From an uncultured Gammaproteobacteria bacterium (lineage in GTDB: Bacteria > Patescibacteriota > Patescibacteriia > Magasanikbacterales > GWA2-37-8): a stretch of 64,000 bases of DNA. Below are positions 3,144 to 29,676 of this stretch, piece after piece (position 1 is the stretch's first letter; each line of letters begins with the position of its first letter). The notes under the pieces were generated by a model. It did no database searches. It was not told the DNA's origin and worked only from the letters and a program-made list of their open reading frames with translations. A program made the translations under genes and the position numbers. Location of the stretch: the NCBI GenBank assembly GCA_964561035.1, contig CAZLNR010000001.1, positions 40,577 to 104,576 on the forward strand. Reading direction: 5' to 3'.

Positions 3144-4934
3144 TTATGGCTTAACTATAGAGCCAGATCGCGATCCAGCATCGTTGGTATTGAGATTGTT
3201 TGAGATAGGCAGGTGGGAGATGTTTAAATTCTTTTTTACAATGCTGTCAGTGGCAGATAGAGAAATGGTATTTGTAAGACGTAGATTTTTGCCAACTTGG
3301 TTGCTGGTTGGGGTTACGGCTACTTCAAAATACAGACCTGTTTGACTGTTGGCCGGCAGTGAATAGTAGTCCCATGATACTGATCGGTTGGCTGAATTAA
3401 ATGCTAGAGCAGGGCCAATGGTTGTGCTTTGTTTTCCTGTAAATTCAACTCCTTCTGGCAAGGATGTTTCCAGGTTAACATTTTCTATAGCATTTGTAGT
3501 GTTAGCAATAGTGATAAAGACCCAATATTTGGTTGTTTTGCCTACTTGTGGAGGCAGTGAACCGCGGCCAAGCTGATCGCCTTCGGCTGTATAGTAGCGA
3601 GCTTCGGTACCAACAAAAGAAACTTCGGTAGCTAGGATTGTGGAAATTCCTGTGCCGCGTTGATTTATTGTCTGATCAGATATGCCCGCAATCTTTGCTT
3701 CAATGGTTGGAAAAATTTCCAAATGAGCGTTTTCAGTATTGGAAATATTAAGCGTTGGTTTAAGATAGATATTTATAACAAACGAATCGCTATTGCCTGG
3801 TTTTCCGTCAGCCAGGCTGGTTCGATTTGACCTGCTAAAGTAGATGCCTTTTTCTTCTAGCTGTGCATGAGCTTCAGCCGCAGTTTTTTTCCAATCAATT
3901 GAGTTTGGAAAATTTGAACTAATATGCAAGTTTGCGTCTGTGATGGCCATAGATCCTTTATTTTCCCAGGAAATACGAACAGGGATAGTCTGTCCCGGCT
4001 CTACAAAAGTAATATTATTAACAAGATCTACCCGGGCTTCAATTTGAGGTACGATGTTGTTTATGTTTTGTATGGAAGGCGCTTGGGAAATAGGGTGATT
4101 GTTTATGGTTATTATTGGTGCGATTGTTTTTTGGTAGTTACCCGGTGCGGACATGCTGGCAAAGGTGCCGGTAAAACTTCTATTACTATGCGCGGGTATA
4201 GTAATGTTTTTAGAGTCTTTTTCTGATATTGCTTGTCCGAAATTATGTTGCAATGAAATGTTTTCTAGTGTTTGGTCGCTCGTGTTGTGGAGGGTGTAAG
4301 TAAACTTAACAGGGCTGTTTGCGAATGTGGTGGTAGGAGAGGATAGCTCGCCCCAAAGTACGCTCTCTGATAGTTGTGAAATAAGCGAGGCAAGTTTTTG
4401 GTCGCGATTCTTTTTTGTATCGGGCCGATAAGATAAGTTGGCGATAAATTTTGATTCTTGAGAAGGATTGGACCAAAATCGGCCGTTAATTTCAAGTTGT
4501 TTGGATGCGCCCGGTTTAATTTCGGTGATTGCGGGAAAGATATATTGGTCTGAAAATATTTCTTTTGGTGTTTTGTTGCGGTCAATAATAAACCCTTCTG
4601 GAAGTTTAATGCCTAAAGAAACCTCCGATAAAGTATATTTACTATGGTTCGTATACTCCAAAGTTAGCCGCACATAATCACCGCTTTTAACGCGTGTTTC
4701 ACCCAAAGATAAAGACAGATCGATAAGTCCGGCGATGCTTGGTTTCCAGAAAAAAAGAAAAAGGCTGCCTGTCATCATAATGACTGCTGTAGCCAGAAGC
4801 ATGAGATCAAAGACAAATAATTTTTTTGCATGCTGGTAGATGCCGTGATAGTGTGTGTGATAATGATGTTTAAGAAAGCGAATCATATAAAAAATTGTAT
4901 AATTTATTATATCCTTTTTAGGGTCTTTATACAA
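3144..4934 (-). CDS. Membrane-anchored cell-surface protein with repeated beta-sandwich (DUF11/CARDB-like) modules
   Basis: 596-aa ORF with an N-terminal His-rich segment and one TM helix (LMLLATAVIMMTGSLFLFFW), followed by Ser/Thr/Asn-rich repeats. The start could be internal (MIRF at ~4886). Operonic with the HTH gene upstream. Confidence 0.55.
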   Translation of the reverse strand: MYKDPKKDIINYTIFYMIRFLKHHYHTHYHGIYQHAKKLFVFDLMLLATAVIMMTGSLFLFFWKPSIAGLIDLSLSLGETRVKSGDYVRLTLEYTNHSKYTLSEVSLGIKLPEGFIIDRNKTPKEIFSDQYIFPAITEIKPGASKQLEINGRFWSNPSQESKFIANLSYRPDTKKNRDQKLASLISQLSESVLWGELSSPTTTFANSPVKFTYTLHNTSDQTLENISLQHNFGQAISEKDSKNITIPAHSNRSFTGTFASMSAPGNYQKTIAPIITINNHPISQAPSIQNINNIVPQIEARVDLVNNITFVEPGQTIPVRISWENKGSMAITDANLHISSNFPNSIDWKKTAAEAHAQLEEKGIYFSRSNRTSLADGKPGNSDSFVINIYLKPTLNISNTENAHLEIFPTIEAKIAGISDQTINQRGTGISTILATEVSFVGTEARYYTAEGDQLGRGSLPPQVGKTTKYWVFITIANTTNAIENVNLETSLPEGVEFTGKQSTTIGPALAFNSANRSVSWDYYSLPANSQTGLYFEVAVTPTSNQVGKNLRLTNTISLSATDSIVKKNLNISHLPISNNLNTNDAGSRSGSIVKP

Positions 4935-4996
4935 ATAGAGTGCAATAAAAAACTCCTTAAGAAGTAAGGAGTTTTTTAGTTTGAGATTGTCAGTTA

Positions 4997-5362
4997 TTAT
5001 TGGTTGGAGGTTGTGGGGTTTTCTGGAAGCTTGGTTGCTTCTGCTGTTGGTTGAGTGGGTAAAGGTTTGCGGTAAGCAGGGGAGTAAAGCGGGTTTTTGA
5101 TTTTCCAGTTTCCTACAAATTGTCCAATACCTTTATTTTCCAATTTGTTTTTAATAGTAGTGTGCCGCTGAGACCATTTTACCAAGCTTTCAAAGTTAAG
5201 CTTGTATCGTCCTGCAACGACTATATATACGATTTCCTTAGCAGCGATTGCGCGTCTAATTGTCTGTGAATTTACACCAAAAAGCTTGGCTGCCTCAGAG
5301 ATTGATACTCTGATAACTTCCTTTGGCTTGTCCATATCAGAGGTCTGTATTGGTTTATCCAT
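4997..5362 (-). CDS. Helix-turn-helix DNA-binding protein (excisionase/Xis-like HTH_17 family)
   Basis: The HTH segment ISEAAKLFGVNSQTIRRAIAAKEIVYIVVAGRYKL matches the MerR/Xis-type HTH. The ORF track starts at 5398, but a palindrome occupies 5368..5389, so the ATG at 5362 (MDKPIQ...) is preferred. Confidence 0.65.
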   Translation of the reverse strand: MDKPIQTSDMDKPKEVIRVSISEAAKLFGVNSQTIRRAIAAKEIVYIVVAGRYKLNFESLVKWSQRHTTIKNKLENKGIGQFVGNWKIKNPLYSPAYRKPLPTQPTAEATKLPENPTTSNQ

Positions 5363-5367
5363 AGAAA

Positions 5368-5389
5368 TTGTATAGATTAATCTATACAA
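5368..5389. promoter_or_regulatory. Operator-like palindrome P1: TTGTATAGAT-TA-ATCTATACAA
   Basis: Perfect 10-bp arms with a 2-bp spacer, immediately upstream of the HTH gene start. Confidence 0.55.
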
Positions 5390-5441
5390 ATATAGCATAA
5401 TTTCAGCTTTTTGTCAAGTATCTGTGGTAGTGTAGGGGCTC

Positions 5442-5493
5442 GCAGAATACATGAATTTGTATACACTTGTGTATACAAATTCATGTATTCTGC
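5442..5493. promoter_or_regulatory. Operator-like palindrome P2: 52-bp perfect inverted repeat (25-bp arms) with core TTGTATACAC-TT-GTGTATACAA
   Basis: gcagaatacatgaatttgtatacac / tt / gtgtatacaaattcatgtattctgc; the reverse complement matches exactly. Confidence 0.6.
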
Positions 5494-5525
5494 CTATAGA
5501 GTATGGTATATGTGATGGTGTTTTA

Positions 5526-5547
5526 TTTGTATACGCTTGTGTATACA
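5526..5547. promoter_or_regulatory. Operator-like palindrome P3: TTGTATACGC-TT-GTGTATACAA, plus a half-site TTGTATAAT at 5552..5560
   Basis: One mismatch relative to the P2 core. The three centres are spaced 89 and 69 bp apart in the divergent HTH / ECF-sigma intergenic region. Confidence 0.55.
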
Positions 5548-5739
5548 AAATTTGTATAATCAAAGTAGGCTATAATCAATAAAATTTTATAATGTTTTTT
5601 TCTTTAAAATAAAGATGTATCTAAGACGTATCTAATTTGACGAAATAGCGATTTTTTGCTATGGTATGTACCACTTTTATTGTATGTTTAGGCAAACAAA
5701 TAGAAGTGTAACATTTTTATTACTCGTACGTCTTCTTTA

Positions 5740-6321
5740 ATGCCTAGTAACAAAATATCAGAAAAAATAATTCTGTTTAAGCTTCGCGTAAATCAAGATC
5801 CGGAAGAGTTTGCGAAGTTATACGATATGTATGCTGGGCAAATCTACAGCTTTGTTTTTTTTAAAGTGTCAAACAGAGAAGAGGCTGAAGATATTGCATC
5901 AGAGGTATTTCTGAAAGCCTGGAGATATGTAAGCGAAAAAAAACCTATTGAAAGCTTTAGTGGATTATTATACAAACTGGCGCGCAACGCAATTGTAGAT
6001 CTGTATCGAAAAAAATCGCACCATAAAGAAATTTCTTTAGTAAAAAAGAATGAAGAGAATGAGCTGGAGGACGGTCTTGAAACAAAAGAGGTTTGGAGTG
6101 TAGGAATGGAAGAACAAATAGGAGAGAAGATAGAAATAGAAAAAATTATTAAAGCATTAAAAAAACTAAAACAAGAATATAGGGAAGTTATTACTCTGAG
6201 ATATGTTGATGAAATGGATATAAGTGAAATTGCCGAAATTACCGGCAAGGGCGCAATCGCGGTAAGGGTAACGCTTCATAGAGGTTTAAAAAAATTAAAA
6301 AATTTATTGGATAGAAAATAA
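5740..6321 (+). CDS. RNA polymerase sigma factor, ECF (sigma-70 regions 2 and 4)
   Basis: Region 2-like segment YSFVFFKV..EDIASEVFLKAW and region 4 HTH VITLRYVDEMDISEIAEITGKGAIAVRVTLHRGLKKL. Confidence 0.85.
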   Translation: MPSNKISEKIILFKLRVNQDPEEFAKLYDMYAGQIYSFVFFKVSNREEAEDIASEVFLKAWRYVSEKKPIESFSGLLYKLARNAIVDLYRKKSHHKEISLVKKNEENELEDGLETKEVWSVGMEEQIGEKIEIEKIIKALKKLKQEYREVITLRYVDEMDISEIAEITGKGAIAVRVTLHRGLKKLKNLLDRK

Positions 6322-6331
6322 AGGTCAAAGT

Positions 6332-7687
6332 ATGTCAAAAATTCTAATTAGACAATTAAAAACTTTGCGGCATAAAGAAGTTAAGCCGAATGAAGTGTGG
6401 TTAAAAAATAACCGCGATCTTTTATTGTCTCAGATTAGAAACACAGTTTCCGTACAGCCTGCCCGTAAAATGACTTTTGATAACTTTGTAGAATTTTTTG
6501 CAATCTTTTTGCCCCAATCATTTGTACATCGCGTAGTGCGACCAATGGTTGCGTTTATCTTGGTGTTGGCTATGGGCGTAGGTAGTTGGGTTGCCACAGT
6601 GAGTGCTTCGTACCAAGCTTTGCCTGGAGATTTTCTGTATTCCGCTAAGCGCGCTACTGAAACTATCCAAGTTAGGGGAGCCGAAGCTGTTGGTAATACC
6701 AATAACGCGGCAAAATTACATCTTGAATTTGCAAAGCGCCGAGCCGCTGAAACCAAAACAATCGTTTCTCAAAACAATCCAGAAAAGATAAATCTCGCAG
6801 CGCAAACAGTTGGTGATCTTAAAAATGAAATTCAAAATATCAACTCTAAATTAGAAGAGATTAAAACTTCAGACGATTCAGCAGGGGAATTGGTAAAAGA
6901 TATCAATAAAAATACTCAAGAAATAAACGGCGTATTAAAAGAAGTAAAAGTCAATTTACTAATTAGTACTGATAAAGAAAATTCTGCCGATCTTGCTACC
7001 CAGGTTTCAGAAGTAAAAAGCATCGTAAAAGACACGGCTGTCAAAGCTGTAGAGGTTATGGTTGTGAAGCATTTGCAAGGAGATGAATCTGTTTCTAAAG
7101 ACGATGTAAAAGAGGCGATTGCCACTCAGCTCCAAAGCGCAGCTAAAGATGTAGTTGAATCTAAAGATAGTATTACTGAAGTAAACAAAGCTATAAATGT
7201 TGTTAAAACGGAAGTAACAAATGCTATAGCAAAAGAAACTAAATATACTTCGCTGACAACTACAGCTGAGAATGCACAGTTATCAGAAAAAATTGAAGCA
7301 ACTTCAAAACAAACTCAGGAAGCTGTAACCAATTTTCAAAAAGTAAGCACTGAAACTGACAAAACAGTAAGCGAAGGAAAAGAGTTGTTGTCTCAAGACA
7401 ATCTTTCTTCCGCAATTGATAAGATTAAAGCGGTTAATGCGGCAACAGCAGAGGTGGAAAAAATTACCGACGCTACGTTAAAAGCCGTTCAAGAAATATT
7501 GCCGGTTGTTAGCGCGGTGGCAGATGCGGTGAATATACCAAGCAGTACAAGTGTTGCGGTTACTACTACGCCAAATTCAAGTACGTTTGGTATAGTGCTG
7601 AGTCAGTCTAGTACTATTAAGTTTGTCACGACTACCACGTCAACAGTGTCTTTAAAAACAACCACTACTCCAGCCGCAAAACCATAA
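6332..7687 (+). CDS. Putative anti-sigma factor, single-pass membrane protein (DUF5667-like) with long coiled-coil ectodomain
   Basis: Lies immediately downstream of the ECF sigma gene. One TM helix (RPMVAFILVLAMGVGSWVATV), followed by a K/E/T-rich helical region and a Thr-rich C-terminus. The family assignment is from memory of CPR anti-sigma arrangements. Confidence 0.55.
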   Translation: MSKILIRQLKTLRHKEVKPNEVWLKNNRDLLLSQIRNTVSVQPARKMTFDNFVEFFAIFLPQSFVHRVVRPMVAFILVLAMGVGSWVATVSASYQALPGDFLYSAKRATETIQVRGAEAVGNTNNAAKLHLEFAKRRAAETKTIVSQNNPEKINLAAQTVGDLKNEIQNINSKLEEIKTSDDSAGELVKDINKNTQEINGVLKEVKVNLLISTDKENSADLATQVSEVKSIVKDTAVKAVEVMVVKHLQGDESVSKDDVKEAIATQLQSAAKDVVESKDSITEVNKAINVVKTEVTNAIAKETKYTSLTTTAENAQLSEKIEATSKQTQEAVTNFQKVSTETDKTVSEGKELLSQDNLSSAIDKIKAVNAATAEVEKITDATLKAVQEILPVVSAVADAVNIPSSTSVAVTTTPNSSTFGIVLSQSSTIKFVTTTTSTVSLKTTTTPAAKP

Positions 7688-7696
7688 ACATAAAAA

Positions 7697-7730
7697 GGAT
7701 TTCTCAAAAATTTTTGAGAATTTCCTTTCT
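7697..7730 (+). terminator. Terminator-like hairpin after the anti-sigma gene
   Basis: ttctcaaaaa/tttttgagaa perfect 10-bp stem followed by a T-rich tract. Confidence 0.5.
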
Positions 7731-7957
7731 GTGATAAAATGTTTTATCCCAGAAAGGAGAGAGAGTTTCAATGTTTAGCAGGCCTTTGGCTGAAAGAACG
7801 TTGAAATAAAAGAGTTTAAATAGTGGCTATTGCAACAGGTCGAGGGCTGGTAACAGCTCGCAAAGCTTTTGTATCCCCACACGGGGAAAGCTTTGACCCA
7901 ACGGCGATTCGTTTTACGAAGCGATGAAGGGTCAGAGGATAATTATTTTATAAAATT

Positions 7958-10900
7958 ATGACCGATGTATTAAAATCCGTAAAAAAAATCTTTACGGTTT
8001 CCGTTGTCGGCGCCACCATGTTGTGGTCCGTCGGCGTATCGGCTTTGTTGCCATCTGCTGCTAACGCTGCAGTTTGCCCAACACTTGCCGCTGGTGACAT
8101 GATCAAGGTATCTGGTAAAGCAGCTATCTATTCTGTTAACAAAGACTTAAAAGTTCTCTATTTCCCTTCAGGAGATGAGTTCAAGAGTTGGAATGAAAAC
8201 AATTCCTACGGTGGTTACGTAACAGTAACTCAGGAATGTTTTGATTCCTTACCTGTTCCTAGTGCATACCCAGGCGCTGTTAACTACCGCCCAGGTTCAT
8301 ACGTTGTGAAGAGACCTTCTTCAGATCAATTGTATGTTGTTTTGCCAGGAAATTCCTTAGCAAAAATTAGTACTACCGATGCTGCCGCTTTATATGGCGC
8401 TAGCTACAAAGTAATGACTGTTGCCGATGCATTCTGGCCTCACTATGTAAATAGAGGAGCCGATGTTGCTGGTACCGTTCATGAAGGTATGCTCGTCAGC
8501 AAAGATGGTAAGACTTGGTATGTAGCCGCTGGTAAAGTATTAAGAGAAGTAACATCAACCGGCATGACCGCTAACAGATTTAAATCTGCTTTCGTTCACG
8601 CTGTTCCTGCTGCTTACTTAACTGGTACTACAGTTGGTTCTCCACTTGCTGCCTTGGAGTCTGCTTTAACTAACAGAACTCAAGATGGAGCTATCGCTTC
8701 AACTCCTGTAACTGGAGGCAATCTCAGTGTTACTTTAGCTGCTGATAATCCAGCCGCTGGAAACATTGCAGACGGTTCCGCTTACAACAAAGTTTTGAAG
8801 CTTAACTTAAGCGCTTCTGCCGCTACTCAAGTTACTGGTATTACTCTTACTAAAACTGGTCTGATTGCTAACAGCAATGTTACCGGTGTTAGTGTTTGGG
8901 ATGCTGCTGGTAACCGTCACGGTGATGTGATGACTTCCTTGACTTCAGACAACAAAATTACTGTAAGTTTTGGATCTTACCCAATCCTCGTAGGCGCTGG
9001 CGCTTCTGAATCTTTAACCGTAGCCGTAAACATTGCACCTGCTGCAAATTCCGGCTTGGTAGGCTTTAGTGTTGCTGCTGCAACTGATGTTGCAAGCAAT
9101 GGTACAGTAGGTGGTTCATTCCCAATCGTTGGTAACCAAATGGCTATCATTGATGGTAATGCTTCTCTTGCTTCTACCACAATTTCCGGTCTTTCAGTTG
9201 GTGGTTCTTCCTCTCAACCTGCAAGTACCGCATCTGGTAACTTACAAATCGGCGATGTTCAAAAAGAAGTTGCTAAATTCAGATTTACCGAACAAAGCGG
9301 TAATGAAGATGTTGCAGTTTCAAAATTGACTTTCTATGTAGCTGGTACTATTCAAGATGCTGATCTCGCTAACTGGAGTGTTTACGCTCCAAGTGGAGAC
9401 AAGCTTGGTATGACTGCTGCAATGAGTAACCGTTATGTAACTGTTAACTTCACATCTCCTTACGTTGTACCTAAGAGTACAAGTCGTGATTTCACTGTTA
9501 AGGTTGACGTAGTTAACGGATCAACCCGTAACTTCCAAGTTCAATTACAGAGTGATTACGATGTAATGATGAGAGGTGTTACAACCGGATTCTATGTATT
9601 ACCAGCTAACTTCACCACAGCTGTGGCAAGTACAAATGGTTGGTTCAATATGGGTTCTGGTACATTGACCGTTAATAAAGCTCCTACTTCTCCATCTGGC
9701 AACGTTTCTGCTGGCGCACAAAATATTGTGTTAGCTAAATTTGACGTAAAAGCTGCTGGCGAAGGCATGGAATTACGTAAAATGGGCTTGGGAGTTGACC
9801 GCTCTGGATCAACTGGTGCAAGCAAGACTTTAACTGGTAACGTTGTTGTTCGTGATGCTACCGACGGTACTGTCTACTTAACTGTAGCCGGCACTGCTTC
9901 TGCATTGTATGCAGGTGGCGCTCAATACACATTGTCCAGTTACTTAAACTTGACTGCTGGTCAAACCAAGAGCTTAGAAGTTGTTGGTAGTATTGATGCT
10001 ACTGCTACTTCCGGACACAAATATCAAGTTCAAATCGGTAACTTCTATGGCAAGAGACTTTCTACCTTAGATTTTGCTGACAACTTACCAACTTCTGGCA
10101 ACACCAGTACTGCTGCTAACCAATTGACAGTTAACGCTACTTCATTGTCTTGCTATAAAGACACTTCAATGGGTAACGAAACTCGCGCAACTGGTTCAAC
10201 AGCTGTAATTGGTAAATATATTTGTACAGCTGGCACATCTGAAGATGTACGTTTGAGCGGACTTACCTTCGCTTTCAACGGAACTTCCGGTCAAGCTGCA
10301 AATAGCTTCCAGAATATGGCTTTGTGGGATGCAACTTCCGCTACTGAAGTACAGTTGGGAACAACCGTATCTACAGTTGCAAGTTCATCAAACAGCTACA
10401 CCTTTGATTTGACCGTTCCTAAGAGTCAAACTAAAGTATTGAAATTGAAAGCTTATGTTGTTCCTGGTTATACTGGAACAATGTCTTCCTCAATCTCAAG
10501 CGGTAGTTACGTAGGTAAAGACAGTAACAACACCGGTAGTATCTCTACCGCTGTTACCGGTCAAACCATTACTATCGGCTCCGGCACCTTAAACATCACA
10601 AGTGTTACAGATGCAACAACCATTTCTAAAGTATACGGACCTGAACAAACAGGCGTACAACTTGGTAAATGGAAATTCGCTGCTAATAATGATGATGTTG
10701 CTTTGAGCAAATTGACATTGCAAGCTGTGTACGCAAACGGAAGTGGCGCTGCTACAACCTTGGGTACATTTGGTTCATTGGCATTGTACGAAGATGGTGG
10801 AAGTACAGCTTTGGCTACTGCCAGCTTTGTAAACGGTGATGTTGTATTCAATAATTTCTCCTCAAACATTGCTATCAACAGCTATAAAGTATACGTATTG

Positions 10901-11677
10901 AAAGGTGATACCAACGCTTCCGGCGTTATTACTAATAACACAACTACACAATTTGTAGTAAAGAGTGATAGTAATACCGACATGGAAGCAAGAGCTGCTT
11001 CAGGCTCATTGCTTGGTACCGCTGAAATCAATTACAATCAATCAATTACAAGTGGTGTTGCAGAAAGCAATTTTGCTACTTCAACTGCCTACTTGTTCCA
11101 CGATGCTTACCCAACAGTAGCTAGTGAATCTTTGGGAACTGCCTTGTTTGTACCAGGAGCACAGACCCAAATTTTCAAATTCTCTGTTACCAACTCTGGT
11201 AAGACAGATTTAAGACTTGCGTCTACAACTGTAAGTGTAACTGTTACTGGTTTGGTAAGTAACGATTCAGTAAGCGACTTTAGATTGTATAGTGATAATG
11301 GTGGTAGTTTGGGCGATTTGCTTGCTCAAAACTCCGGATTTGTTACTTCTACTACTTCTACCTCAAACCCATTATCAGTAAACTTCAACACTGGCAATGA
11401 CCAGAATAGTTTGCTTGATAATTTGGTAGTTGCTCCAGGAACAAAGAGAACATTTATCGTAACCGCTAATACCTTGTCTGCAACTGTAAACAAGACCAGC
11501 GGTAAGATTTATATCTCTTCTAAGATTACTGGTTCAACTGGTTGGAGTGGAACAACCTGGAATACAGGTAATTTGTTCTACTTCTACACCCCAACTAACG
11601 GTAGTGAACAGGGTGCTTACTCTGCTTCAAACTCTTACGAAGTGCTCGGTCCTTCATTGGAATATAGCGCATCTTAA
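7958..11677 (+). CDS. Large secreted cell-surface protein (S-layer/major envelope protein candidate), 1239 aa
   Basis: Signal peptide MTDVLKSVKKIFTVSVVGATMLWSVGVSALLPSAANA-AV. Composition is dominated by T/S/A/G/V/N with very few charged residues. Codon usage differs from neighbours (aac, tac, ttc, ggt, gct, gtt, act preferred) as in highly expressed genes. A strong terminator follows. Confidence 0.7.
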   Translation: MTDVLKSVKKIFTVSVVGATMLWSVGVSALLPSAANAAVCPTLAAGDMIKVSGKAAIYSVNKDLKVLYFPSGDEFKSWNENNSYGGYVTVTQECFDSLPVPSAYPGAVNYRPGSYVVKRPSSDQLYVVLPGNSLAKISTTDAAALYGASYKVMTVADAFWPHYVNRGADVAGTVHEGMLVSKDGKTWYVAAGKVLREVTSTGMTANRFKSAFVHAVPAAYLTGTTVGSPLAALESALTNRTQDGAIASTPVTGGNLSVTLAADNPAAGNIADGSAYNKVLKLNLSASAATQVTGITLTKTGLIANSNVTGVSVWDAAGNRHGDVMTSLTSDNKITVSFGSYPILVGAGASESLTVAVNIAPAANSGLVGFSVAAATDVASNGTVGGSFPIVGNQMAIIDGNASLASTTISGLSVGGSSSQPASTASGNLQIGDVQKEVAKFRFTEQSGNEDVAVSKLTFYVAGTIQDADLANWSVYAPSGDKLGMTAAMSNRYVTVNFTSPYVVPKSTSRDFTVKVDVVNGSTRNFQVQLQSDYDVMMRGVTTGFYVLPANFTTAVASTNGWFNMGSGTLTVNKAPTSPSGNVSAGAQNIVLAKFDVKAAGEGMELRKMGLGVDRSGSTGASKTLTGNVVVRDATDGTVYLTVAGTASALYAGGAQYTLSSYLNLTAGQTKSLEVVGSIDATATSGHKYQVQIGNFYGKRLSTLDFADNLPTSGNTSTAANQLTVNATSLSCYKDTSMGNETRATGSTAVIGKYICTAGTSEDVRLSGLTFAFNGTSGQAANSFQNMALWDATSATEVQLGTTVSTVASSSNSYTFDLTVPKSQTKVLKLKAYVVPGYTGTMSSSISSGSYVGKDSNNTGSISTAVTGQTITIGSGTLNITSVTDATTISKVYGPEQTGVQLGKWKFAANNDDVALSKLTLQAVYANGSGAATTLGTFGSLALYEDGGSTALATASFVNGDVVFNNFSSNIAINSYKVYVLKGDTNASGVITNNTTTQFVVKSDSNTDMEARAASGSLLGTAEINYNQSITSGVAESNFATSTAYLFHDAYPTVASESLGTALFVPGAQTQIFKFSVTNSGKTDLRLASTTVSVTVTGLVSNDSVSDFRLYSDNGGSLGDLLAQNSGFVTSTTSTSNPLSVNFNTGNDQNSLLDNLVVAPGTKRTFIVTANTLSATVNKTSGKIYISSKITGSTGWSGTTWNTGNLFYFYTPTNGSEQGAYSASNSYEVLGPSLEYSAS

Positions 11678-11730
11678 TGAGTTAAAGCATTCCTAGTAAA
11701 TAAAGACCTGTCTTTATCGAACAGAAACGC

Positions 11731-11765
11731 AAAACCCGCCCGCAAGGGCGGGTTTTGTTGTTTTG
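11731..11765 (+). terminator. Rho-independent terminator
   Basis: aaaacccgccc-gcaa-gggcgggtttt followed by a T-run. Confidence 0.85.
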
Positions 11766-11825
11766 GAGATTGACAGATAGGGAATTTTTAGGTATGATTG
11801 GTATCTATTAGAAATTATTTTATTT

Positions 11826-25772: not shown

Positions 25773-26282
25773 ATGTCTAATAAGCATACAAAACAAGCTT
25801 TTGAGCGGTTTTATCTCGATCATATAGACAAGGTGTATCGCTTTGTTTTTTTTCGTGTTAATTGTGATAAGGATTTGGCGCAGGATTTGGTCTCGGAAAT
25901 TTTTATGAAGGCGCTCAAAAATTTTGCAGATTACGACGAATCGATTAGTAGATCCGCCTGGCTGATGACGATTGCTAAAAACCATATTATTAATTATTAT
26001 CGCGACACTAAGCCTATCGCGGAACTACCCCAGGACGAAGACGGTGAAATCCTTGACTCTTTTTGGCTAATTTCTGCTAAAAATGTATTTAAAAAGAACG
26101 AAAATGCCCGTTTTGTACAGGAGTTTTTGAGTGAATTAGACGAGGTCAGCCGAGAGATTGTAGCTTTTCATTATATTTATGGGTATAGTTATGCAGAGAT
26201 AGCTGAAATGAAGAAAATGACTGAAACAGCAGTAAAAGTGGCAGCTCATCGCGCTATCAAAAAAATGTCATCTCACATATGA
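25773..26282 (+). CDS. RNA polymerase sigma factor, ECF family (second copy)
   Basis: Region 2 (..DLVSEIFMKAL..) and region 4 HTH (YSYAEIAEMKKMTETAVKVAAHRAIKKM). Starts 10 nt after the dnaJ stop. Confidence 0.8.
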   Translation: MSNKHTKQAFERFYLDHIDKVYRFVFFRVNCDKDLAQDLVSEIFMKALKNFADYDESISRSAWLMTIAKNHIINYYRDTKPIAELPQDEDGEILDSFWLISAKNVFKKNENARFVQEFLSELDEVSREIVAFHYIYGYSYAEIAEMKKMTETAVKVAAHRAIKKMSSHI

Positions 26283-26998
26283 GTTTTAAAATAAAATACA
26301 ACCTATCTAAACTAAAAGGGTCTGCTAAGCCAGACGCTGTGTTTAAGAAACAGTTACATACAGATTTAATGTCTGCTTGGAATGGTTCTTTTGGCAAAAC
26401 ACCGTGGTACCATGGTGTGCTCGCTCATCGCATAGCGGCTAGCGCTCTCTTGATAATTATTTTGGCTACTAGCAGTGGCGCATATGCCTATGCAAGCCCA
26501 GAAGTTACCGAAGGAAGCGTGCTGTTTCCAGTTAAAGAAGCTATGGAGCGCGTAGAAGAAGTTACTAAATTTACCCCCGAATCTAAGGCCGCGTTCTATT
26601 TAAAGCAAATTGAACGTCGAGAAAAAGAACGATTAGTCTTGCAGACAAAGAAACCTGCAGCGTTAAAAGAAAAATATGAAACTGTTCAAATAGCCACAAC
26701 CACAGATGCTGATGAAAAAACAGCCAGCTTGCCGCAGCCTGATACAGGCACAGTTGGCAAAAAGGCTCGCGCTACAGATGGTAGTGATGAAGGCGAACAA
26801 GTAAAAAAAATTAATCGCAGTATTGATAACACCGAAAAAAAATTAGAAAAAGCAAAAGAGTTAATGGAAAAGCTTGCTGAAAAAAATACTGAACGTCAGA
26901 AAGAAATTAGAGCCAAAATTGAAAAACGGCTTGAAGAAAGAAAAAAACGCCTAGAAAAATTAGAAGAAAAGCAGTTGGAGCATGCGTTTGAAGACTAA
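26279..26998 (+). CDS. Putative anti-sigma factor (single TM, DUF5667-like ectodomain, coiled-coil C-terminus)
   Basis: ATGA overlap with the sigma gene. TM helix AASALLIIILATSSGAYAYA, then a LFPVKEAMERV segment resembling the first anti-sigma (FLYSAKRATETI). Confidence 0.5.
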   Translation: MSFKIKYNLSKLKGSAKPDAVFKKQLHTDLMSAWNGSFGKTPWYHGVLAHRIAASALLIIILATSSGAYAYASPEVTEGSVLFPVKEAMERVEEVTKFTPESKAAFYLKQIERREKERLVLQTKKPAALKEKYETVQIATTTDADEKTASLPQPDTGTVGKKARATDGSDEGEQVKKINRSIDNTEKKLEKAKELMEKLAEKNTERQKEIRAKIEKRLEERKKRLEKLEEKQLEHAFED

Positions 26999-27102
26999 TA
27001 TATCAAATTGCTGTTTAGATCTCGAATATTTTTTCGAGCAAAGAGGGTCGATAAACAGTGTTATTAATATTAATTAATTCATTAAAGTTAAATATTAAAT
27101 AT

Positions 27103-27858
27103 ATGAAAAAATACGTAATCTTAACACTGGTGGCCGTTATGGCATTTGGTTCTTTTGCTCCGGCATTTGCCAGAGAAGAGGAAAATAGAGGTAGAGAAGC
27201 AGCCGAAGTTAAAAAAGAATTGCGCGAAGAACGTCGTGATGAAGCTAAGGAAAAATTAGAGCGAGCTTTAAAAATTGCTCCTCGCGCCTTTACCGTTGCT
27301 GGTACGGTGGCTGCGGTAGATTTAACCACCACTACATCTTCAACTGGAAAATTAACTATACATGTAACTAAAGTTTTGCCAGGCACTCCAAAGCATTGGC
27401 CAACCTCTACAGTTGCATATCCAGAAAAAGAAAAAGACTTGGTAGTTACACTTACGGTAAAAACAACCTTATTGCGAGCTTATGGCGGCAAGATGAAAGC
27501 TTCCGAGATGGCAGTTGGCGATGAAGTTCGCGTAGTAGCAAAATACACAAAAGAAGGCGTAATTGAAGCAAAAGTTGTAAAAGATAACTCATTACATGTT
27601 ATTCTAAATAAAAAAGGCACTGTTGAAAGCATTGATGCTGCCAACGGAACATTTGTTTTGAAACAGGAGAAGAGAACCTTAACTGTTAAAACAAACAGCA
27701 ACACCAAATTTACCTTAAAAGGCACAGGCGCTGTTTCGTTTTCAAACCTGGTGGCAGGTGATGTGGTGCGCGTGGAAGGTGTTGTAAATTTAAACTCTAA
27801 AACTGTTGATACTCGCGCAGTGGTAATTGCCAAAAGAGCAGTTGCGCAAGCGCAGTAA
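27103..27858 (+). CDS. Secreted protein of unknown function (DUF5666-like, assignment tentative)
   Basis: Signal peptide MKKYVILTLVAVMAFGSFAPAFA, then a charged helical stretch and a beta-rich C-terminal part. Third gene of the sigma/anti-sigma module. Confidence 0.5.
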   Translation: MKKYVILTLVAVMAFGSFAPAFAREEENRGREAAEVKKELREERRDEAKEKLERALKIAPRAFTVAGTVAAVDLTTTTSSTGKLTIHVTKVLPGTPKHWPTSTVAYPEKEKDLVVTLTVKTTLLRAYGGKMKASEMAVGDEVRVVAKYTKEGVIEAKVVKDNSLHVILNKKGTVESIDAANGTFVLKQEKRTLTVKTNSNTKFTLKGTGAVSFSNLVAGDVVRVEGVVNLNSKTVDTRAVVIAKRAVAQAQ

Positions 27859-28323: not shown

Positions 28324-29676
28324 TTAATAATTGGTCTTCCAAATACCATCCTTGGTTTTGCTTATAAAGTATAATATTTTATTTTTGGTATCTGCCTGCG
28401 CTGTATGTATTTGTTCGGCTATAAGCTCATGGCTGACCAGATAGTATGGAAATAAAATCGTGCTGCGCTGGTTCCATATAAGGGCGAGTGTGTTATATTG
28501 ATCAAGCGGCAAAACAGTATGCAGTTGTTCACCCGATCTGCTTAGCAGCTGAGGCTCTTCGCCGTCGCTATATGTCCATAATTCCCATTGCGACCATAAT
28601 AGCCACCAGTTATTATATGGCGAAACAAAGAAGTTTGTCGTGTCAATTGGATGTAGCCCGTTTTGGTTGGCGAGTATGGCTTTTTTTCCATATAAATTGC
28701 CGATGAGTGCTGTATTTCCTTTGACTTTTAAAAGAGCCGGTTTGTTGCTATTTGGCTGGTCGTTGGTTGTAAAATAAGTTTTATTAACAGTTTGAACAAT
28801 AGTAGGGAAACCTAAAATATCTTTGGTTATTATATAGGCATCGGTATTGGTTGCGAATTGCAAAGCCCATAGTTCGTTTGCTTCCACAGACCAATCTAAA
28901 TATGTATTTGCGGTAACCAGCTGTGATTTATTGGTAGTCGGAGTGTATAAAAAAATCTGATTTTTTGTACTGTAATATACTTGAGGTTCGCTGGTTTGGT
29001 TCCAGATAAATTTTGTAATTGGCGTACCGGAGCCTATAGTAAATAATTTTTTAGTTTCCGCGTTTAATATGTATATCTGCGCAAACGGCTGTTCTGTCGG
29101 AGCGATGACGGCCAGGTTATTTTTTTCATCCCATGTATATTGGAAACGCAGGTCGCTGTCTAATCCGGTAATCTGGGTTTTTTCTTGAGTGCGCACATTC
29201 CATAGCCAAGTAAAAAAACCTTTATCAGTTTGAGTTGTAAATAGTATGTATGCGCCATCGGCTGATACAGAAAAGTCATTTATCGTGCCGCTTATCGCCA
29301 GTTCCAGTTTTGGTTTTTTTATTAAGCGTATTTCTTTAATATAATTTGTTTGTTTGTTTTTTACCTCTATTTCTTTGGACCAATCAATATACCCTTCGGC
29401 GCTTAGGCGGGTGTTATAAGTTGCGGGCGTGATGTTATTAAGGCGAATAGGCAATGTTTTCTGCAGTTTGATATTATTAAGGTAGGCAACCGATTCTTGC
29501 GGCTCTATATCAATACTGATTGATCCAGTTTCTTTGAGTAGGCCGTTATGCCAGTCATAGCGATAGCCGGCAGTATACATGATTAAAAGAGGGGATATGA
29601 TAAAAAAAGCGCTGATAAAAAAAATAAACATGAACTGTCTGATCGGCTTAGTGAATTTTGTTCCTGGATATTCCAT
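28324..29676 (-). CDS. Membrane-anchored beta-propeller (TolB/WD40-like) protein, unknown function
   Basis: N-terminal TM helix, then repeated W/Y-rich beta-strand blocks (..YILFTTQTDKGFFTWLWNV.., ..WNQTSEPQVYYS..). Confidence 0.5.
   Translation of the reverse strand: MEYPGTKFTKPIRQFMFIFFISAFFIISPLLIMYTAGYRYDWHNGLLKETGSISIDIEPQESVAYLNNIKLQKTLPIRLNNITPATYNTRLSAEGYIDWSKEIEVKNKQTNYIKEIRLIKKPKLELAISGTINDFSVSADGAYILFTTQTDKGFFTWLWNVRTQEKTQITGLDSDLRFQYTWDEKNNLAVIAPTEQPFAQIYILNAETKKLFTIGSGTPITKFIWNQTSEPQVYYSTKNQIFLYTPTTNKSQLVTANTYLDWSVEANELWALQFATNTDAYIITKDILGFPTIVQTVNKTYFTTNDQPNSNKPALLKVKGNTALIGNLYGKKAILANQNGLHPIDTTNFFVSPYNNWWLLWSQWELWTYSDGEEPQLLSRSGEQLHTVLPLDQYNTLALIWNQRSTILFPYYLVSHELIAEQIHTAQADTKNKILYFISKTKDGIWKTNY

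Follow-up and report, generated by a model that had tools for sequence, protein, structure and literature searches.

Does a protein that resembles the main surface layer of a bacterium owe its expression to the sigma factor encoded before it? The question is raised by a locus of an uncultured ultra-small bacterium (Magasanikbacteria, Patescibacteria), where an earlier note had seen genes for an ECF sigma factor, a membrane protein and a 1239-aa secreted protein in a row. The three ORFs are indeed there (5740-6321, 6332-7687 and 7958-11677 of the window, by which we mean the whole stretch of 64,000 nt that was analysed). We read the locus as an S-layer-type protein together with a sigma/DUF5667 cassette, read-through into the large gene, and a role at the RNA level for the spacer that precedes it, and we give this reading as a whole a probability of roughly 0.6; the interpretation in the earlier note, likewise taken as a whole, is partly supported.

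Gene order and conservation

The features of the locus are as follows.

3144..4934, minus strand: 596-aa membrane-anchored protein with DUF11-type beta-sandwich repeats (Pfam DUF11, E=1e-11)
4997..5398, minus strand: HTH_17 (excisionase/MerR-like) DNA-binding protein, 133 aa (Pfam HTH_17, E=1.3e-6)
5458-5477, no strand: operator-like palindromes, TGTATACA-N4-TGTATACA; a further TGTATACA at 5540-5547
5707..5733, plus strand: ECF-type promoter upstream of the sigma gene, TGTAACA-N15-ACGTCT
5740..6321, plus strand: ECF (group IV) sigma factor, 193 aa (Pfam Sigma70_r2 and r4_2; region 3 absent)
6332..7687, plus strand: single-pass membrane protein, candidate anti-sigma, 451 aa (DUF5667, E=3e-9)
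7688..7957, plus strand: structured spacer or leader, 270 nt; several hairpins, then an AT-rich stretch up to the ATG
7806..7888, plus strand: conserved RNA motif, from covariation across ortholog loci
7958..11677, plus strand: ORF of the large secreted protein, 1239 aa
7958..8068, plus strand: its signal peptide, aa 1-37, read from the sequence; cleavage expected after ANA
8069..8692, plus strand: its N-terminal module, a candidate cell-wall anchor (aa 38-245) in which an alpha/beta unit of ~55-60 aa occurs three times
8693..11677, plus strand: its body, aa 246-1239, ~nine beta-sandwich (cohesin-/Ig-like) domains
11729..11758, plus strand: intrinsic terminator at the end of the unit; 13-bp stem with 8 G-C pairs, then a T run

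The five genes (DUF11 protein, HTH, sigma, DUF5667 and large protein) form a cassette that is kept across ~40 species-level genomes with differing outer flanks, and this conserved cassette appears to be a new feature. The linkage of the sigma pair to the large gene exceeds chance placement, because these genomes keep it and it is found again in two Paceibacteria lineages. A Staskawiczbacteria locus (L060) has the same order of sigma, DUF5667 and surface-protein genes; in the Staskawiczbacteria, and this speaks against our reading, the sigma gene is preceded by a sigma-70-type promoter. We found no earlier description in the literature of a genetic link between an ECF sigma factor, a membrane partner and a surface protein, and the accessible parts of PMC10936435 and bioRxiv 10.1101/2024.05.28.596244 mention neither the sigma/DUF5667 linkage nor a leader RNA nor the Magasanikbacteria. 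The pair had been placed "directly upstream" of the large gene, which is right for the order but not for immediate adjacency, given the 270-nt structured spacer between them.

The outermost conserved member is the DUF11 gene, which in most ortholog loci neighbours that for the HTH protein and whose product probably has a role in the cassette. The HTH_17 gene, divergent from the sigma gene and kept in all ortholog loci having enough flank, has a near-consensus sigma-70 promoter (TTGACA-17-TATATT with TG, 5417->5389). There are five copies of TGTATACA in the window versus 0.69 expected, three of them in the HTH-sigma spacer, where the copies sit inside longer palindromes (5444-5493 and 5527-5550). 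A palindrome is found in this spacer in 35 of 37 loci, mostly as pairs 12 bp apart, and is probably bound by the HTH_17 product. Some Paceibacteria relatives have an HTH gene upstream but neither a sigma nor a DUF5667 gene, which also speaks against our reading.

Codon usage and expression

The divergent codon choice reported for the large gene proved to be the most extreme among the 53 genes of the window, with C-ending codons preferred for Asn, Tyr, Phe and Ile: C/(C+T) for these four is 0.57, versus 0.17 in the pooled other plus-strand genes (Fisher p against plus-strand genes 2e-11 for Asn, 1e-8 for Tyr and 2e-14 for Phe). In six four-fold boxes, G-ending codons make up ~1%, versus roughly 20% elsewhere. 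C is thus raised in two-fold boxes, and in four-fold boxes T is raised and G vanishes; GC3 is not raised (0.31), which rules out a simple base-composition shift. In all 32 ortholog loci the bias is stronger than in neighbours on the same strand (medians: C/(C+T) 0.58 versus 0.23, NNG fraction 0.08 versus 0.24), and since it is kept in 32 other genomes down to 30% protein identity, we attribute it to selection and not to recent transfer. Its direction is that expected of translational selection, as the earlier note had proposed. Distant relatives with PG_binding_1 carry the same bias, which in locus L061 equals that of rplL (L7/L12); paralogs sharing only the N-terminal module (L044, L047, L049 and L056) do not. 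In the window itself the genes for ribosomal protein L9 and DnaK are unbiased, so that translational selection would need to act visibly on the very top genes only. We propose that selection keeps the codons optimised because the gene is expressed at a very high level.

It is very improbable that amino-acid composition, strand or recent horizontal transfer produced the bias as an artefact, uninformative on expression. The unusual composition of the protein and the unbiased DnaK and L9 genes would fit such an origin, but the measurement was made within synonymous families, the shifts differ between two-fold and four-fold boxes at flat GC3, the bias is seen in every ortholog (protein identity 30-80%) as well as in other classes, and paralogs with the same N-terminal module show none. 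An artefact is thereby largely refuted.

Expression values exist for relatives. According to the accessible part of PMC10936435, the top-expressed secreted proteins of Paceibacteria bear PG-binding and Ig-like domains, and the part of its supplement available to us lists for Ca. Yanofskyibacterium an ECF sigma factor, a DUF5667 protein and a secreted protein, in the same order as here, with transcript values of 7.6, 12.5 and 16.7. The surface-protein gene of this relative is thus far above its neighbours, in line with the very high expression claimed for the large gene. The values, apparently on a log scale, step by 4 to 5 units, and plain co-transcription is therefore not the explanation there. 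The secreted protein has 692 aa, versus 1239 aa here; judging by size and organism it is probably GMX57981.1, a 692-aa Yanofskybacteria protein entered, with a citation of reference [178], in a table of Patescibacteria S-layer proteins predicted to form lattices, in the accessible part of bioRxiv 10.1101/2024.05.28.596244.

The large surface protein

The signal peptide has a basic n-region, a hydrophobic core and an AxA site, a pattern kept in orthologs, and the mature protein is as rich in Thr, Ser, Ala, Gly, Val and Asn as had been noted (61%, versus 38% in other genes). "Almost no charge" is an overstatement, although charge is low (12.6% charged residues versus 23.4% in other genes; pI 5.6). 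The N-terminal module, whose fold weakly resembles wall-binding domains, is found on other proteins too and is swapped for PG_binding_1 in relatives. Identity within the distant half of the family is 63% for the module, versus 28% for the body. The body becomes more variable towards its C-terminus and has its homologues in a large family of Patescibacteria proteins that mostly bear PG_binding_1. The conserved anchor and variable outer end are compatible with both readings considered below.

Secretion and a build of beta-sandwich domains are supported for the protein. Most likely this wall-anchored protein is the S-layer of the cell. We propose that it is exported via its signal peptide as the major surface-array (S-layer-type) protein and would form a lattice, that the three-repeat module would anchor it on the cell wall, and that the ~nine beta-sandwich domains would point outwards, the outer end being the fastest-evolving. 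The S-layer proteins of Gram-positive bacteria (SbsC and SbsB of Geobacillus; Sap and EA1 of Bacillus anthracis) likewise have a signal peptide, an N-terminal wall-binding module and a string of beta-sandwiches. Acidic pI, scarcity of Cys and high (here predicted) expression are further shared traits. The nine domains of SbsC lie like beads on a string, according to the accessible part of PMC13635256. Here as in that group, the anchor is conserved, the outer part variable and the anchor domain swapped (such conservation, variability and swaps in S-layer proteins are described in bioRxiv 10.1101/2025.04.02.646754). Neither sequence nor specific fold matches SbsC, SbsB, Sap or EA1, however, and the anchor is an undescribed three-repeat module, not SLH or CWB2, in an organism of the Patescibacteria. 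Other Patescibacteria surface proteins also have beta-sandwich bodies and wall-binding N-termini and are of the same size class (table entries of 1131-1274 aa in the accessible part of bioRxiv 10.1101/2024.05.28.596244).

Fold searches matched generic cohesin/Ig-like domains only, with solved S-layer proteins absent. This genericness and this absence speak against an S-layer.

We consider it unlikely that the protein instead serves episymbiosis as an adhesin or in host attachment, abundant and anchored on the wall but forming no lattice or closed S-layer. Its fold matches include cohesins, adhesin domains and pilins, the pTM of 0.49 suggests a flexible chain of domains, and the authors of PMC10936435, in its accessible part, proposed host attachment for highly expressed proteins with PG-binding domains. 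The orthologs, however, are of uniform length (~1220-1290 aa) and occur as a single full-length copy in each genome, the extreme codon bias equals or exceeds that of L7/L12 in L061, and the available portion of bioRxiv 10.1101/2024.05.28.596244 predicts lattice-forming S-layer proteins for similar Patescibacteria proteins.

Sigma factor, membrane partner and spacer

With Sigma70_r2 and r4_2 domains and 95.7 bits against the NCBIfam model sigma70-ECF (TIGR02937; cut-off 42.9), the sigma factor is of the ECF type, as first read; "envelope-stress-type" was an assumption. Its best named NCBIfam model is the BldN family, at 107.7 bits far under the cut-off of 206.45, and it is therefore not a member. 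The promoter before its gene is the sole above-chance motif match in the window. All 37 non-redundant loci carry TGTAAC-N16-CGTCT without variation, the spacer being 16 nt throughout, and in 35 of them the ATG lies exactly 7 nt past CGTC, which implies a leaderless sigma mRNA. This combination appears to be a new feature, and we propose that the leaderless operon is transcribed from this promoter by the sigma factor that it encodes.

The DUF5667 protein begins with ~40 conserved cytoplasmic residues; then come a transmembrane segment (the one hydrophobic segment in the sequence, ~aa 68-90), the DUF5667 domain, an extended helical stretch and a tail rich in Thr and Ser. The domain was detected in 32 of 33 orthologs. 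Its gene follows the sigma gene by 2-20 nt, or overlaps it, in most loci, and such coupling or overlap is seen in three or more independent pairs, of which two have no adjoining S-layer-like gene. Position, coupling and topology make it most likely an anti-sigma, which would keep the sigma factor at the membrane and sense the state of the envelope. Domain and profile searches found no known anti-sigma domain, and a PDB profile search matched only coiled-coil-like chains. The absence of such a domain, together with the single membrane anchor, the long coiled-coil-like region, the Thr/Ser-rich tail and, in Ca. Yanofskyibacterium, a DUF5667 transcript far above that of sigma, would also suit a structural stalk by which the array is tied to the membrane, the part that SlaB plays for SlaA in Sulfolobus. 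We think this quite unlikely, as the gene, in contrast to the large gene, has no codon bias, the coupling to sigma genes extends beyond S-layer-like loci, and the conserved N-terminal 40 aa resemble an expected sigma-binding segment. In the Sulfolobales, too, a gene for a large lattice protein (SlaA) adjoins one for a membrane-anchored helical protein (SlaB), but these are archaea with a C-terminal anchor and no sigma factor there, and the helical protein here lacks expression-type codon bias. The anti-sigma reading has a likeness in ECF sigma/membrane anti-sigma pairs, in particular sigma-BldN/RsbN of Streptomyces, where the gene for a two-domain sigma factor is likewise followed by a co-transcribed one (here by prediction) for a single-pass membrane protein, with an AAC/CGT-type promoter. 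BldN directs expression of the surface-sheath genes for chaplins and rodlins, and its anti-sigma RsbN has no known similarity to classical anti-sigma domains. Here, by comparison, the partner carries DUF5667, the mRNA of the sigma gene is apparently leaderless, and the target promoter was not found before the surface gene.

The regulated expression suggested for the large gene has conserved linkage in its favour, but no locus has TGTAAC-N16-CGTC in the spacer before that gene, so that sigma control would be possible only via read-through or an unrecognised promoter. A search of the spacer found neither a canonical terminator nor a consensus promoter. Transcripts begun at the sigma promoter would thus be expected to continue past the DUF5667 gene, which no terminator follows, into the large gene. 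The spacer, 142-350 nt across loci (one exception of 816 nt) with conserved blocks inside, is strongly folded (7688-7975: -94.2 kcal/mol, z=-7.1) and contains a covarying structured RNA that appears to be a new feature. Its helix P1 (7825-7833 with 7860-7867) is 74% paired, and in its hairpin P2 (7844-7849 with 7854-7859) pairing reaches 96.8%, five of the six pairs showing compensatory changes; positions 7838-7843 belong to an invariant internal loop, A(A/G)GTCGA, and TTGTA follows at 7869-7873. None of 500 shuffles matched the observed score, slid controls gave 29-55% pairing, and a covariance model found exactly one copy per ortholog locus, including four non-seed loci, and zero elsewhere. 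Rfam holds no matching family. We propose that the spacer acts at the RNA level, through processing, stabilisation or regulator binding at the invariant GGUCGA loop, which would let the surface-protein message build up far above the two regulatory messages. Long, strongly folded leaders also precede the slpA genes of Lactobacillus and Thermus thermophilus, and structured S-layer gene leaders stabilise mRNA or bind regulators; the P1/loop/P2 motif differs in its lack of an Rfam match and may sit inside a polycistronic transcript, not at a 5' end.

It is possible, if doubtful, that the pair is simply a conserved neighbour controlling other genes, and that the large gene has its own unrecognised housekeeping promoter and the spacer is a stabilising 5' UTR, as in Lactobacillus slpA. 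The missing sigma motif would fit, as would the widely separated transcript values of Ca. Yanofskyibacterium and the loss of the pair in some relatives. Yet none of 38 spacers has a sigma-70-type promoter at a consistent position, the pair's linkage persists across classes though other flanks change, no terminator separates it from the large gene, and no further above-chance copy of the sigma motif lies within 10 kb in any locus.

The strong terminator that had been noted beyond the large gene is confirmed, and locus L015 has one at the equivalent site; after it comes typA, with its own consensus promoter at 11770-11798.

The probable surface protein and its putative anchor

The three consecutive plus-strand ORFs described in the earlier note were found at exactly the coordinates it claimed, and they belong to a five-gene cassette with the following features:

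3144-4934, minus strand: gene for a DUF11 membrane protein
4997-5398, minus strand: gene for an HTH_17 protein
5444-5550: large perfect palindromes based on TGTATACA, in the HTH_17-sigma divergent region
5707-5742, plus strand: sigma promoter region
5740-6321, plus strand: sigma factor gene, 193 aa
6332-7687, plus strand: DUF5667 protein gene, 451 aa
7958-11677, plus strand: surface protein gene, 1239 aa
11729-11758, plus strand: intrinsic (Rho-independent) terminator, 13 pairs, 8 of them G-C, with the T-run tail TGTTTTGGAG

For the 1239-aa protein the S-layer reading is the best supported: with a probability of roughly 75%, it is a major wall-anchored surface protein, probably one that forms a lattice. 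It carries a signal peptide, and its mature form (pI 5.6) contains four cysteines, with C40 and C94 nearly invariant. The earlier description of a T/S/A/G/V/N-rich protein with almost no charge was right about composition, these residues making up 61% of the mature protein, but the charge is about half of the usual value rather than near zero. S-layer proteins are a functional class, not one homologous family. No sequence match was found for this one in Pfam, NCBIfam or PDB chains, the whole protein contains no SLH (PF00395) or CWB2 (PF04122) repeats at E<0.1 in Pfam or NCBIfam, and self-BLAST of its body (aa 246-1239) detected no sequence repeats. AlphaFold, given 108 homologs, predicts an alpha/beta module at the N-terminus and, after it, a body made almost entirely of strands (pLDDT 92, pTM 0.49). 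Since the body is about 995 aa long and the matching domains are about 120 aa each, it is predicted to comprise roughly nine beta-sandwich domains, a kind of fold that the earlier note had proposed to look for.

A candidate anchoring role for the N-terminal module, three repeats spanning aa 38-245, is suggested by domain swapping, reuse and conservation. Three homologs (P0088, P0095 and P0098) keep the body (35% identity over aa 268-1211) and carry PG_binding_1 in place of the module, and an exhaustive search recovered the module, 50-73% identical, from many unrelated proteins, in which it is C-terminal. Along the protein, conservation declines steadily, from 0.71 at its N-terminal end to about 0.36-0.39 at its C-terminal end; among the more distant half of the family members, identity is 63% for the module and 28% for the body. 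The module behaves as a mobile, putatively wall-anchoring domain without a Pfam family, and is a candidate for a new and widely reused one. Bacterial S-layer proteins likewise combine a conserved anchor, which may be swapped, with a fast-evolving outer part (bioRxiv 10.1101/2025.04.02.646754). Proteins with the module at the C-terminus include P0163, P0173, P0189, P0194, P0207 and P0235, and are 550-2178 aa long.

The family has 1483 representatives at 50% clustering (E<=1e-3), and a profile of its distant members reaches Gribaldo-, Yonath-, Sung-, Staskawicz-, Wildermuth-, Pace- and Beckwithbacteria. These distant members are typically 1100-1250 aa long, most contain PG_binding_1, and all are annotated as hypothetical or peptidoglycan-binding proteins. 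By its homologs and by related loci, the window itself is assigned to Candidatus Magasanikbacteria (Patescibacteria). A literature search on Magasanikbacteria and S-layers returned no papers. Among other Patescibacteria, a set of S-layer lattice predictions assigns p6-type lattices to proteins in two size ranges, 1131-1274 aa, which is similar to the protein here, and 643-727 aa (bioRxiv 10.1101/2024.05.28.596244), and, in a study of three Paceibacteria, the top-expressed secreted proteins carry PG-binding and Ig-like domains (Kuroda et al., PMC10936435).

The claim that the gene is codon-optimised was borne out. Its C/(C+T) for Asn, Tyr, Phe and Ile is 0.57, compared with 0.17 in the other plus-strand genes, the first rank among the 53 genes of the window (Fisher p against plus-strand genes for Phe, Asn and Tyr, 2e-14 to 1e-8). 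In the six four-fold boxes, G-ending codons make up about 1% of its codons, compared with roughly 20% elsewhere; T-ending codons are enriched there, and GC3 is not raised. Because C goes up in two-fold boxes and G goes down in four-fold boxes, a single mutational drift cannot explain the pattern, and translational selection classically shifts the codons of highly expressed bacterial genes in this direction. Comparison across loci was the decisive test, and it shows that the bias is real and selected: in 32 of 32 ortholog loci, with protein identity down to about 30%, the gene is more biased than its same-strand neighbours (median C/(C+T) 0.58 vs 0.23; NNG fraction 0.08 vs 0.24). Four paralogs that share the N-terminal module only have no such bias; distant relatives in other Patescibacteria classes have the same shift. 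Set against a ribosomal protein gene, a yardstick that the earlier note suggested, the homolog at one Paceibacteria locus (L061) reaches 0.75, close to rplL at 0.71. As a caveat, the L9 gene in the window, like the DnaK gene, uses unbiased codons, which implies that codon selection is visible on the very top genes only. The signal peptide, read from the sequence, predicts secretion; high abundance is supported indirectly, by the codon selection and by transcript data from a relative.

The sigma factor, its membrane partner and the cassette

By its domain content, the 5740-6321 product is an ECF (group IV) sigma factor. These are small proteins of ~170-200 aa with regions 2 and 4 alone; here Pfam finds Sigma70_r2 (aa 27-93), r4_2 (aa 134-186) and no other domain, and the NCBIfam model TIGR02937 (sigma70-ECF) matches with 95.7 bits, its cut-off being 42.9. 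Among named NCBIfam models the BldN family (TIGR02952) is the best, but its 107.7 bits fall far below the curated equivalog cut-off of 206.45. Upstream of the gene, TGTAAC-N16-CGTCT is invariant in 37/37 non-redundant loci, and we read it as an ECF-type promoter from its sequence; the autoregulatory promoters of ECF sigmas have AAC in the -35 element and CGT in the -10 element, 16-17 nt apart. The sigma ATG follows exactly 7 nt past CGTC in 35/37 loci, a spacing that implies a leaderless sigma mRNA. Most ECF sigmas autoregulate, and we infer that this one also drives its own promoter. AT-rich leaders that lack a Shine-Dalgarno sequence precede several other genes, typA for example.

The HTH gene has a near-consensus promoter with an extended -10. 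Palindromes built on TGTATACA lie in the HTH-sigma divergent region of 35 of the 37 ortholog loci, usually as a pair 12 bp apart, with a consensus of roughly TTTGTATACACTAGTGTATACAAA, and they are probably operators of the HTH protein. The codon bias that the HTH_17 gene appears to have in the window was not upheld across orthologs.

To survey the cassette, we compared the proteins of the window with 57 loci by tblastn. Every full-length ortholog of the surface protein gene with enough flank is preceded, in the same order and orientation, by genes for the DUF11 membrane protein (minus), HTH_17 (minus), sigma (plus) and DUF5667 (plus); the cassette is missing from loci that have nothing but the N-terminal module in common with the window. 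Genes beyond it vary, with typA downstream in close relatives and Wzy_C, glycosyltransferase and sugar-epimerase genes in others. Farther away, the order is kept at a Staskawiczbacteria locus, with HTH_DeoR, sigma and DUF5667 genes ahead of a homolog of 1182 aa, and three other Paceibacteria loci have no sigma gene; in two of these three an HTH gene with weak similarity to the DeoR or IclR type lies immediately upstream, and two have Wzy_C downstream. This conservation makes a functional link between the sigma pair and the surface protein gene well supported.

A Wzy_C (O-antigen-ligase-like) gene adjoins the surface-protein gene, on its downstream side, in seven loci of relatives (L002-L005, L058, L060 and L061), often accompanied by genes for glycosyltransferases and sugar epimerases, an arrangement reminiscent of S-layer glycosylation clusters; the 1239-aa protein is Thr/Ser-rich.

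The earlier note had paired the sigma with a membrane anti-sigma. An ECF sigma and a neighbouring membrane protein are indeed present, but none of 33 orthologs of the second protein matches a Pfam anti-sigma family. Class I anti-sigmas (ASD / zf-HC2) carry their anti-sigma domain at the N-terminus, and an HxxxCxxC zinc motif is common in it; the N-terminal 70 aa of this protein contain no Cys. Its one substantial match in Pfam and NCBIfam is to DUF5667 (PF18915; E=3e-9, 37.5 bits, gathering threshold 27), which Pfam also detects in 32 of the 33 orthologs. A profile search for DUF5667 architectures containing a known anti-sigma domain returned 15 short DUF5667-type proteins, none of them informative, and a literature search on DUF5667 found no papers. 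Support for the protein as a candidate anti-sigma is indirect: tight coupling to sigma (a gap of 10 nt in the window; in most orthologs the genes overlap or are 2-20 nt apart), a cytoplasmic N-terminus of ~40 aa that is conserved and followed by one hydrophobic segment, the recurrence of sigma-DUF5667 pairs, and a gene without expression-type codon bias. One such recurrence is a second module of the same design at 25773-27858:

25773-26282: second ECF sigma gene, overlapping the next gene by 4 nt
26279-26998: gene for a DUF5667-like membrane protein (E=1.9e-5)
27058-27858: gene for a DUF5666 secreted protein, after the sigma/DUF5667-like pair

A third sigma/DUF5667-like pair lies at 4112-5267 of a relative's locus, L018.

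Transcript values from Ca. Yanofskyibacterium bear on the same question. A supplementary table lists three genes on one strand, for an ECF sigma (PMX_810_sub_00352; 7.6 and 0), a DUF5667 protein (PMX_810_sub_00351; 12.5 and 12.3) and a secreted product (PMX_810_sub_00350, 2079 nt; 16.7 and 15.9), with a DeoR-type HTH gene adjoining them (PMC10936435). The units are apparently logarithmic, as the table's third column is the difference of the first two. The gene order is that of the window, and transcript climbs steeply toward the surface-protein gene. From its equal size, the 692-aa product of 00350 would be the 692-aa Yanofskybacteria entry among the lattice predictions (bioRxiv 10.1101/2024.05.28.596244). 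In this relative the DUF5667 transcript stands well above that of sigma; this, with the lack of a detected anti-sigma domain, keeps a structural SlaB-like stalk as a minority alternative to the candidate anti-sigma, which the coupling to sigma and the unbiased codons favour.

The spacer RNA and the predicted transcription unit

The spacer between the DUF5667 and surface protein genes is 142-350 nt long with one exception, and, judging by its pairing and covariation, it is a structured RNA. The 288 nt from 7688 to 7975 fold at -94.2 kcal/mol (z=-7.1). In the alignment, a hairpin with a polypyrimidine arm paired to a polypurine arm comes right after the stop codon, followed by an A-rich linker, a helix P1 that encloses an invariant A(A/G)GTCGA loop and a hairpin P2, then TTGTA and variable hairpins; the conserved motif from P1 to TTGTA lies within 7806-7888 of the window. 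Across 36 sequences P2 is 96.8% paired, with compensatory changes in five of its six pairs, and P1 is 74% paired; not one of 500 shuffles attains these values, and in slid controls 29-55% of positions pair. With a covariance model, each ortholog locus yields a single copy, four loci outside the seed among them; there is no further copy in about 1 Mb, nor any in four Paceibacteria loci. No Rfam 15 family matches the leader motif at gathering score; within 5300-8100 Rfam gives sub-threshold microRNA-precursor and small-RNA matches alone, which we judge to be chance, and in the whole window tRNAs only.

In the 250-670-nt spacers of the four Paceibacteria loci (L058-L061), [AG]GTCGA occurs in 1-3 copies, 64-279 nt before the ATG of S-layer-like genes, a recurrence that is suggestive.

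The linkage behind the earlier proposal that the sigma pair regulates the surface protein gene is conserved, but TGTAAC-N16-CGTC is absent from the spacer before this gene in every locus. Nor do 38 spacers contain a consistently placed sigma-70-type promoter. A recurrent AATAAT ~10 nt before the ATG is better read as an AT-rich, SD-less initiation region like that before typA, and the P1/P2 region was ruled out as a promoter by covariation of the P1 arms. No canonical terminator separates the DUF5667 and surface protein genes, though the genome plainly uses such terminators; hairpin H0 was ruled out as one because no T run follows it. The strong terminator that the earlier note placed by the gene was confirmed at 11729-11758, and typA, beyond it, has its own near-consensus promoter. 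As the spacer has neither a recognised promoter nor a canonical terminator, the simplest transcription unit by sequence signals would run from the ECF promoter to this terminator. Read-through from the ECF promoter combined with RNA-level amplification is, in our judgement, slightly more likely than the rival explanation, an independent promoter of a kind we did not recognise.

A possible coat-control circuit and other features of the window

The cassette could be a self-contained homeostat of the protein coat, although we regard this as a speculative and rather unlikely reading of the whole. The DUF5667 membrane protein would sense the state of the S-layer or wall and release the ECF sigma; the freed sigma would fire a leaderless operon that amplifies itself and extends by read-through into the S-layer gene; and the structured RNA, with its invariant GGUCGA loop, would set the survival or translation of the S-layer message. 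The same loop may recur 5' of S-layer-like genes in other Patescibacteria classes. If true, it would give DUF5667 its first function and be the first known case of an S-layer controlled by a dedicated sigma/anti-sigma and cis-RNA circuit. Both kinds of component, S-layer proteins and ECF sigma pairs, are already known; new here are their conserved combination, the putative leaderless ECF promoter, the candidate anchoring module and the leader RNA.

Patescibacteria make up a large share of bacterial diversity, almost all of it uncultured, and what is known of their envelope comes mainly from a few cryo-EM images. A named candidate for the coat protein of Magasanikbacteria gives metaproteomics, enrichment by antibodies or FISH-type methods, and cryo-ET fitting a concrete target. 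The cassette links an ECF sigma, DUF5667, an HTH regulator with clear operator candidates and a new structured RNA to one gene, and through it the control of a minimal cell's most expensive protein becomes directly testable. The interest is mainly for specialists in Patescibacteria and cell envelopes.

Although Magasanikbacteria-like in gene content, many public records with the cassette bear the title 'uncultured Gammaproteobacteria bacterium' or 'Candidatus Udaeobacter', and they look like mislabelled MAGs. Across the window, C/(C+T) is ~0.2 in plus-strand and ~0.35 in minus-strand genes, the cumulative GC skew climbs monotonically, and the genes mostly share one orientation. The tRNA-Gln(ctg) that ARAGORN calls at 28925-29013 is probably a false positive, since it scores below threshold with the Rfam tRNA model and lies inside the minus-strand ORF 28324-29676. 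Finally, the ORF at 1204-1770, just past tRNA-Lys and tRNA-Val in a locally G+C-richer stretch, is atypical (GC3 0.56; C-ending two-fold codons 0.64) and may be foreign, or no real gene.
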